Shown one piece after another: positions 3,828 through 3,906 of a stretch of DNA of 6,803 bases. A program made the translations under genes and the position numbers. The stretch comes from a virus (lineage: Duplodnaviria; Heunggongvirae; Uroviricota; Caudoviricetes): IMG/VR virus record IMGVR_UViG_2778261347_000004; one strand, given 5' to 3'. Every line of letters begins with the position of its first letter. Position 1 is the stretch's first letter. A model generated the notes under the pieces. The model did no database searches. It was not told where the DNA came from and worked only from the letters and a program-made list of their open reading frames with translations.

Positions 3828-3906
3828 ATAACCAAAGATAACTCAAGTTATAAAAAATAGCAATAACCTTTGTTATTTTACTTTGGATAACCGTAGTTAT
3901 AGATTT
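3828..3906. promoter_or_regulatory. oR region: operators OR1 ATAACTCAAGTTAT (3838-3851), OR2 ATAACCTTTGTTAT (3863-3876), OR3 ATAACCGTAGTTAT (3887-3900); pR on minus strand (-35 TTGCTA plus 3858-3863, -10 TATCTT plus 3835-3840); pRM on plus strand (-35 TTTACT 3877-3882, -10 TAGATT 3900-3905)
   Basis: Three perfect 14-bp palindromes ATAAC-N4-GTTAT at 24-25 bp spacing between divergent cro and cI; promoter hexamers with 17-bp spacers overlap the operators in the lambda-like pattern. Confidence 0.7.

Follow-up and report, generated by a model that had tools for sequence, protein, structure and literature searches.

Do the short palindromes that lie between the divergent cro and cI genes of an Escherichia coli Shiga toxin (Stx) prophage set its immunity specificity, and which proteins read them? 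We addressed this question in a stretch of tailed-phage DNA of 6,803 nt (IMG/VR record IMGVR_UViG_2778261347_000004; the whole stretch is referred to below as the window). A first-pass annotation of positions 3828-3906 had proposed that immunity is defined here by 14-bp operators of the form ATAAC-N4-GTTAT, with the promoters pR and pL built as mirror images around them. The operators and promoters described below very probably make up the switch by which a lambdoid Stx1 prophage controls immunity and the choice between lysis and lysogeny. In construction it is an ordinary lambdoid switch, built like those of lambda and 434, with a specificity that we did not find characterised. The clustering of the sites, the conservation of their half-sites, their co-variation with the recognition helices of cI and Cro and a search with the DNA motif alone all argue that the operators do set immunity specificity, as proposed.

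The motif ATAAC-N4-GTTAT (ATAACNNNNGTTAT) occurs four times in the window with zero mismatches (starting at 3838, 3863, 3887 and 5180), compared with 0.01 occurrences expected by shuffling, and none of 200 shuffled sequences reached four perfect sites. With up to two mismatches allowed there are 12 matches versus 2.9 expected, and these add the sites at 5155-5168 (one mismatch), 5111-5124 (two mismatches) and 3828-3841 (two mismatches). Perfect sites are confined to the cro/cI intergenic region (OR1, OR2 and OR3 of the right operator region, oR) and to pL (OL1 of the left operator region, oL), the two regions being about 1.3 kb apart. The sites and related elements, all palindromes or parts of palindromes, are as follows.

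3838-3851: OR1, ATAACTCAAGTTAT, perfect; next to cro, overlapping the pR spacer and the first three bases of the pR -10.
3863-3876: OR2, ATAACCTTTGTTAT, perfect; overlapping the pR -35 by 1 bp and abutting the pRM -35.
3887-3900: OR3, ATAACCGTAGTTAT, perfect; in the pRM spacer, its last T being the first base of the pRM -10.
5180-5193: OL1, ATAACCTAAGTTAT, perfect; overlapping the pL spacer and -10.
5155-5168: OL2, ATAAATTAGGTTAT, one mismatch; overlapping the pL -35 by 1 bp.
5134-5147: OL3 remnant, ATAACCTATTTACC, with an intact left half and a degenerate right half.
5111-5124: distal oL element, AATACCTTTGTTAT, two mismatches; with an 11-mer in common with OR2.
3828-3832: additional ATAAC half-site near +1 of pR, at a distance of 10 bp from the left half of OR1.

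The three perfect palindromes claimed for oR are therefore present. At oL, where at least two had been claimed, OL1 is perfect but OL2 carries one mismatch and the outer sites are degenerate. The 10-mer said to be common to OR2 and an oL site (CCTTTGTTAT) is found in OR2 and in the element at 5111-5124, and the full common stretch is in fact an 11-mer (ACCTTTGTTAT). The distal part of oL (5111-5147) resembles an eroded duplicate of OR2 plus OR3, in which the OR2 11-mer is followed by 9 nt, an ATAAC left half and a degenerate right half.

The oR sites are flanked by the genes of the two regulators.

3913-4620, plus strand: cI repressor, 235 aa, with a helix-turn-helix N-terminal domain (PF01381) and an S24 peptidase C-terminal domain (PF00717).
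3577-3801, minus strand: Cro, 74 aa, of the lambda/P22 Cro (YdaS) family (Pfam PF15943 and PF14549).

The recognition helix of cI is S29-Q-P-A-I-Q-K-M36 and that of Cro is T-Q-P-A-V-H-K-W. The N-terminal domain of cI matches the 434 repressor in PDB (1per/2or1; phmmer E=3e-7) and aligns without gaps to 434 R1-69 (BLASTP, 34% identity over 65 residues), and the self-cleavage residues Ala111-Gly112, Ser152 and Lys189 are invariant in an alignment of 11 homologues. Cro finds its best PDB matches in Xfaso1 Cro (3bd1) and in lambda Cro (2a63); 434 Cro is absent from the PDB matches of this protein. The earlier assignment to a 434-type class thus holds for the N-terminal domain of the repressor and for the 14-bp length of the sites, but neither for Cro, a member of the lambda/P22 family, nor for the half-site, which is not ACAA...TTGT. 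By homology, the switch is a mosaic that joins a 434-like repressor head to a lambda-like Cro, CII and pRE. The cluster names for cI, Cro and N are generic only.

Distant cI homologues from IMG/VR, 60-72% identical to the window protein, have a near-identical C-terminal domain and a different recognition helix. With the window type they make up four classes, listed here by half-site.

ATAAC: cI helix SQPAIQKM, Cro helix [TS]QPAVHKW.
ACAAC: cI helix SQAAIQKI, Cro helix SQQAVYKW (relative L080).
ATAGC: cI helix AQPSVWKL, Cro helix KQPSVWAW.
ATCGC: cI helix AQSS[VI]N[KR]L, Cro helix AQSTICDW.

The ACAAC, ATAGC and ATCGC classes carry 5-4-5 palindromes at their own OR and OL, matched to their own helices, and no window-type ATAAC-N4-GTTAT was found in the OR or OL of these altered-helix relatives. 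Neither helix residue 1 (Gln30 in cI) nor half-site base 1 (A) varies; at the third helix residue, Ala occurs with A as the fourth half-site base, and Ser or Thr occurs with G, throughout the four classes. In the 'evolutionary code' of Cro (Hall, Lefevre and Cordes 2005; Hall et al. 2011/2019), base pairs 2, 5 and 6 of the half-site change together with helix positions H1, H3 and H6: Gln at H1 and Ala at H3 each go with A, and Ser or Thr at H3 goes with G (PMC6649833). The H1 and H3 rules are obeyed here by Cro and also by the cI helices, whereas the rule that joins Lys at H6 to C is only partly followed, H6 of Cro being Ala or Asp in the ATAGC and ATCGC classes.

We also scanned one genome per species (185,579 species) for the arrangement OR1-N35-OR3, using DNA only, and detected 27 loci. 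In 20 of them the adjoining cI and/or Cro homologues carry the helix SQPA[IV]xK, and this helix is kept even where cI is only 27-46% identical. The hosts include Kluyvera, Enterobacter, Serratia, Xenorhabdus, Entomohabitans and Gilliamella, as well as Bradyrhizobium, Xanthobacteraceae and other Alphaproteobacteria, in which cI is only 27-44% identical (alphaproteobacterial and Gilliamella examples of the OR layout are L094, positions 1221-1283, and L100, positions 3148-3210, among the loci L088-L114). The Kiloniella locus has flanking homologues with a different helix (SQVMIHK), and the remaining six loci, from archaea and other groups, have no cI or Cro genes alongside and look like chance matches. 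The DNA motif alone thus predicts the helix of the adjoining protein, which is strong evidence that cI and Cro read these sites.

The operators are interleaved with the following predicted promoters.

3835-3863, minus strand: pR, with -35 TTGCTA (3863..3858), a 17-bp spacer and -10 TATCTT (3840..3835); predicted to drive cro, nutR and cII.
3877-3905, plus strand: pRM, with -35 TTTACT (3877-3882), a 17-bp spacer and -10 TAGATT (3900-3905).
5168-5196, plus strand: pL, TTGACC-17-TATCTT, called by the promoter scan.

The mirrored design attributed to pR and pL, with the same -10 (TATCTT), a 17-bp spacer and an operator lying over spacer and -10, was confirmed; the two are superimposable base for base, O2 ending on the first T of the -35 and O1 on the TAT of the -10. 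OR2 abuts the pRM -35 (TTTACT), again as claimed, and does so at a lambda-like position: from its centre (3869.5) to the pRM start predicted downstream at 3912 or 3913 is about 42.5-43.5 bp, compared with 42 bp in lambda. We infer activation by the repressor from this placement. The claimed identity of the pRM -10 TAGATT with the lambda pRM hexamer proved correct when checked on NC_001416. We placed pR and pRM by a register that is conserved in relatives: across 14 gammaproteobacterial lineages the same pR register holds hexamers scoring 7-11/12, and the pRM register is also conserved. The ATG of cI (3913) follows the pRM -10 by 7 nt (6 nt in most relatives, as in lambda), and no usable Shine-Dalgarno sequence precedes it (window positions 3900-3915). 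Because of this short gap, as in lambda, we predict a cI mRNA with no leader or almost none.

Relatives preserve this layout. By blastn, the DNA of the cro-OR-cI module is 94% identical to that of SH2026Stx1, 78% to the O157 Stx1 phages of PA28 type, 75% to the Salmonella contig S.Kent 1-2-1 and 71% to HK639, where the match covers cro, OR and the N-terminal half of cI only. All of these carry three OR sites with the same half-sites and different spacers. The OR centre spacing of 25 and 24 bp is strictly conserved, and the half-sites of OR1 and OR3 are unchanged throughout 23 distinct OR segments, IMG/VR contigs among them, while the spacers and the DNA between operators vary. OR2, perfect in the window, has one mismatch in most related lineages. 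OL1 is conserved in all lineages examined and perfect in nearly every distinct oL segment; OL2 has a left half with one mismatch in every lineage examined, reading ATAAA in nearly every distinct oL segment. An imperfect OR2 in most lineages and an imperfect OL2 are the pattern expected if the second site leans on cooperativity with the first. Further out in oL, HK639 has a good OL3 homologue (ATAACTTATGTGAT) and PA28 a weaker one, and the distal GTTAT with its preceding T-rich stretch (TTTGTTATC in the window) is kept in all lineages examined, with single-base variants in a few segments. Since both surviving half-sites of the distal oL are kept in all of these lineages, they may still function. 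The extra half-site at 3828-3832 is present only in close relatives (window type and PA28 type) and absent in HK639, S.Kent and L078.

We propose that dimers of cI and dimers of Cro would read the same 14-bp sites, each monomer contacting one ATAAC half-site through its recognition helix (SQPAIQKM in cI, TQPAVHKW in Cro). In the lysogen, cI at OR1/OR2 and OL1/OL2 would cover the -10 and -35 of pR and pL and repress both promoters, and cI at OR2, at about -43 from the pRM start, would assist RNA polymerase at this weak promoter, as happens in lambda and 434. At high cI concentration OR3 would become occupied and pRM would be shut off. RecA-stimulated self-cleavage of cI at Ala111-Gly112 would allow pR and pL to fire, after which Cro would take the same sites and N would act at nutL and nutR.

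With perfect half-sites at OR1, OR2 and OR3 alike, the filling order must be set by something else, probably by the uncontacted 4-bp spacer, which is rich in A/T at OR1 and OR2 and higher in G+C at OR3, together with cooperativity. In the window the spacers are at 3843-3846, 3868-3871 and 3892-3895. Across 24 distinct OR regions, the OR3 spacer holds on average 2.4 G+C of 4 positions, versus 1.0 in OR1 and 0.75 in OR2 (Wilcoxon p=0.001 and p=5e-5, respectively, uncorrected for relatedness). In 434, as studied by Koudelka et al. in 1987, A/T-rich operator centres reportedly bind repressor more tightly, by indirect readout. The spacer trend resembles this behaviour, and our hypothesis is that it may set the site-filling order.

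Several points weigh against this proposal. For this repressor, both binding and activation are predictions from sequence. The promoters pR and pRM are weak, each scoring 8/12 against consensus, and were uncalled by the promoter scan (cut-off 9/12 against consensus). The test of spacer G+C treats relatives as independent, and at least one OR region is an exception (L094). The extra half-site at 3828 and the distal oL elements have roles that the proposal leaves unexplained. OR2 is perfect in the window, so that cooperativity is not strictly needed. Finally, the repressor of phage 933W is reported to act without cooperative binding to adjacent sites (PMC3317979), and lambda-like behaviour therefore cannot be assumed.

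The same operators could accordingly serve a switch without cooperativity, of the 933W kind, in which the OR sites fill independently, pRM is only autorepressed and the prophage is an unstable 'hair-trigger'. This we consider unlikely. It would agree with the perfect half-sites of all three OR sites in the window phage, with the 933W report just mentioned and with an oL that has only two good sites, as reported for 933W (PMC8065619); on the other side stand the imperfect OR2 of most sister lineages and the one-mismatch left half of OL2 in all, which fit a second site helped by the first, as well as the strictly kept 25-/24-bp spacing and a weak pRM with OR2 at the lambda activation position.

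Much less probable is a reading in which the palindromes are by-products of A/T-rich divergent promoters, or sites of another factor, and do not determine immunity. The region is A/T-rich, and GTTAT supplies the TAT of the pR and pL -10, so that its conservation could partly reflect the promoters. This is very hard to reconcile with the shuffling result, with half-site changes that follow the helix changes of both cI and Cro in four classes, and with a DNA motif that by itself predicts the adjoining helix across bacterial classes.

H-19B is the classical Stx1 phage from the O26:H11 strain H19, and its operators were reportedly mapped by Shi and Friedman in 2001. That the window is simply this characterised immunity region can be dismissed almost outright: the toxin type and host serotype are the same, and the four operators reported at the H-19B OR (compared with three OR and two OL sites in 933W; PMC8065619) might be likened to the window's extra half-site beside OR1, but direct comparison with AF034975 rejected the identity, its cI, Cro and OR being unrelated, with no ATAAC-N4-GTTAT in the cI-cro intergenic region. 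The 22 phage records that match the window cro-cI region by blastn include neither H-19B nor any named 933W. The region upstream of pckA, for which a 2005 paper described similarity to the H-19B OR3, gave a best match to the window operators of 13/18, which is unconvincing. Both 933W and H-19B resemble the window phage in being lambdoid Stx-converting phages with cI/cro switches, but H-19B differs in the sequences of cI, Cro and operators, and on these comparisons the window specificity is that of an immunity group separate from both.

Comparison with known immunity groups, which the first-pass annotation had suggested as a check, gives half-sites shared with HK639 and distinct from those of H-19B and 434. 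Lambda has the same divergent cI and cro around three operators and a second cluster at pL, and it shares with the window the position of OR2 relative to the pRM start (about 42-43 bp upstream), the pRM -10, the ATG directly after it, and Cro and CII homologues. It differs in having 17-bp operators with the half-site TATCAC, whereas those of the window are 14 bp long (5-4-5, with the symmetry axis between base pairs) and have the half-site ATAAC. The window differs further from lambda in its cI N-terminal domain of 434/HTH_3 type, in an oL with two good sites only, in its oL-oR distance and in the use of a DnaB-type helicase instead of P for replication.

The repressor of 434 (PDB 2OR1, 1PER, 1R69) resembles that of the window in the gapless alignment of its N-terminal domain, and Gln at the first helix position and A at the first half-site base are kept. 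The operators of 434 are also 14 bp long, with a variable and presumably uncontacted centre. Differences lie in the helix (QQSIEQ in 434, QPAIQK in the window), in Cro, which in 434 is an all-alpha paralogue of the repressor and in the window a member of the lambda/P22 Cro family, and in the half-site, ACAA(G/T) in 434. Because of this half-site difference the window phage and 434 would be heteroimmune.

HK639 (HM208537) is much closer. It has the same cI recognition helix and N-terminal domain, a near-identical Cro with the same helix (QPAVHKW), three OR sites that match ATAAC-N4-GTTAT perfectly and are spaced as in the window, and the same layout of pL, OL1 and OL2. It differs in an unrelated cI C-terminal domain (41% identity overall), an intact OL3 and antitermination by put RNA instead of N. 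Its record carries no operator annotation; a 'putative pL' is annotated there at the position homologous to the window pL. The 'putative pR' of the same record (L001, positions 2745-2773) lies about 18 bp downstream of the conserved register (TGGACA-17-TATCTT over OR1 and OR2) and is probably misplaced. A specificity unique to the window phage is not what we found: it is also present in HK639, in the O157 Stx1 phages of PA28 type and in many other prophages.

In an alignment (A1) of the window with L001, L002, L004 and L078-L086, the specificity classes keep a near-identical cI C-terminal domain, and HK639 joins the N-terminal domain of the window to an unrelated C-terminal domain. Such shuffling of N- and C-terminal domains among cI proteins indicates recombination at the interdomain linker. 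Since HK639 keeps the same N-terminal domain, Cro and operators next to an unrelated C-terminal domain, the N-terminal domain, OR and cro form the exchangeable specificity module.

A broader proposal, for which we see the case as evenly balanced, is that this module is ancient. The SQPA[IV]xK helix, the ATAAC-N4-GTTAT operator and the fixed 49-bp OR1-OR3 layout would have been kept together from Stx phages to Alphaproteobacteria while the rest of cI diverged down to about 27% identity. The filling order would be written in spacer G+C, and the ACAAC, ATAGC and ATCGC classes would form a natural series of single-residue, single-base-pair changes across two folds (cI and Cro).

As to the origin of the DNA, the 2.6 kb around the operators are 100% identical to the Stx1a-converting phage Stx1a_10051, and prophages of E. 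coli O26:H11, such as that of strain 11368, match the cro-cI segment at 100% identity. Judged by these matches, the window is part of an Stx1 prophage of E. coli O26:H11. The prophage count that had been called for came to 163 of 5426 complete E. coli genomes (about 3%) with some version of the cro-cI segment; in 105 of these the identity is at least 99%. From its open reading frames (ORFs) and their Pfam matches, the window is a lambdoid early region in inverted orientation, and besides the switch it contains the following features.

845-2221, minus strand: DnaB-type helicase gene (ORF and Pfam).
2277-3005, minus strand: O replication protein gene (ORF and Pfam).
3189-3467, minus strand: cII, lambda CII family (Pfam PF05269, E=5e-45).
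3445-3477, plus strand: pRE-like element, TTGC-N6-TTGT followed by the -10 region CCATATGTAAGTATTTCCTTA, inside the start of cII.
3527-3568, minus strand: nutR, downstream of cro, with boxA at 3568..3560 and boxB at 3542..3527.
4661-4957, plus strand: small ORF of 98 aa directly 3' of cI, matching phrog_18389 (unknown function).
4962-4981, both strands: bidirectional intrinsic terminator, 3' of the 98-aa ORF.
5243-5282, plus strand: nutL, with boxA GCTCTTTAA at 5243-5251 and the boxB hairpin CCCGCCGAAATGCGGG at 5267-5282.
5391-5663, plus strand: N antiterminator, 90 aa, with an arginine-rich N-terminus (Pfam PF25694, E=1e-15).

The boxA of nutL and nutR are identical, as are their boxB hairpins, and the 21-mer of the pRE-like element is identical to the -10 region of lambda pRE (aligned with lambda 38319-38429). 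The phage is a mosaic: around the N gene its DNA is of HK620/HK630 type (96% DNA identity), which the immunity module is not. The 98-aa ORF occupies the position of lambda rex, is low in G+C (27-33%) and has a hydrophobic N-terminus; it is probably a prophage-expressed gene (a 'moron'), possibly with a role in the exclusion of other phages. The non-coding DNA between the terminator and oL (4982-5110) is C-rich and G-poor on the plus strand (GC skew -0.6 to -0.74), a composition that resembles a Rho-utilisation (rut) site. Downstream of N are two conserved phage ORFs of unknown function, at 6059-6553 (minus strand) and 5582-6028 (plus strand), matching phrog_1244 and phrog_7374; in the first of them, two CxxC pairs (CAHC ... 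CPRC) suggest a zinc ribbon.

The operator string ATAACCTTTGTTAT was not found in the literature searched; an earlier description is possible, for example in the Cro/OR database of Hall et al. 2005 or in Fattah et al. 2000. The lambda/434 paradigm is left conceptually unchanged by these results. What they provide is a defined operator sequence for an immunity group to which the Stx1 prophages of O26:H11 belong; those of O157:H7 belong to it too, in a diverged form that retains the half-sites. Cross-immunity is predicted among HK639 and phages of the PA28 and O26 types despite their differing DNA, and there are now concrete sites for work on the stability and induction of Stx1 prophages. The most useful by-products are the wide spread of the helix/operator pair and the co-varying sister classes, which make up a test set for the rules of DNA recognition by helix-turn-helix proteins.

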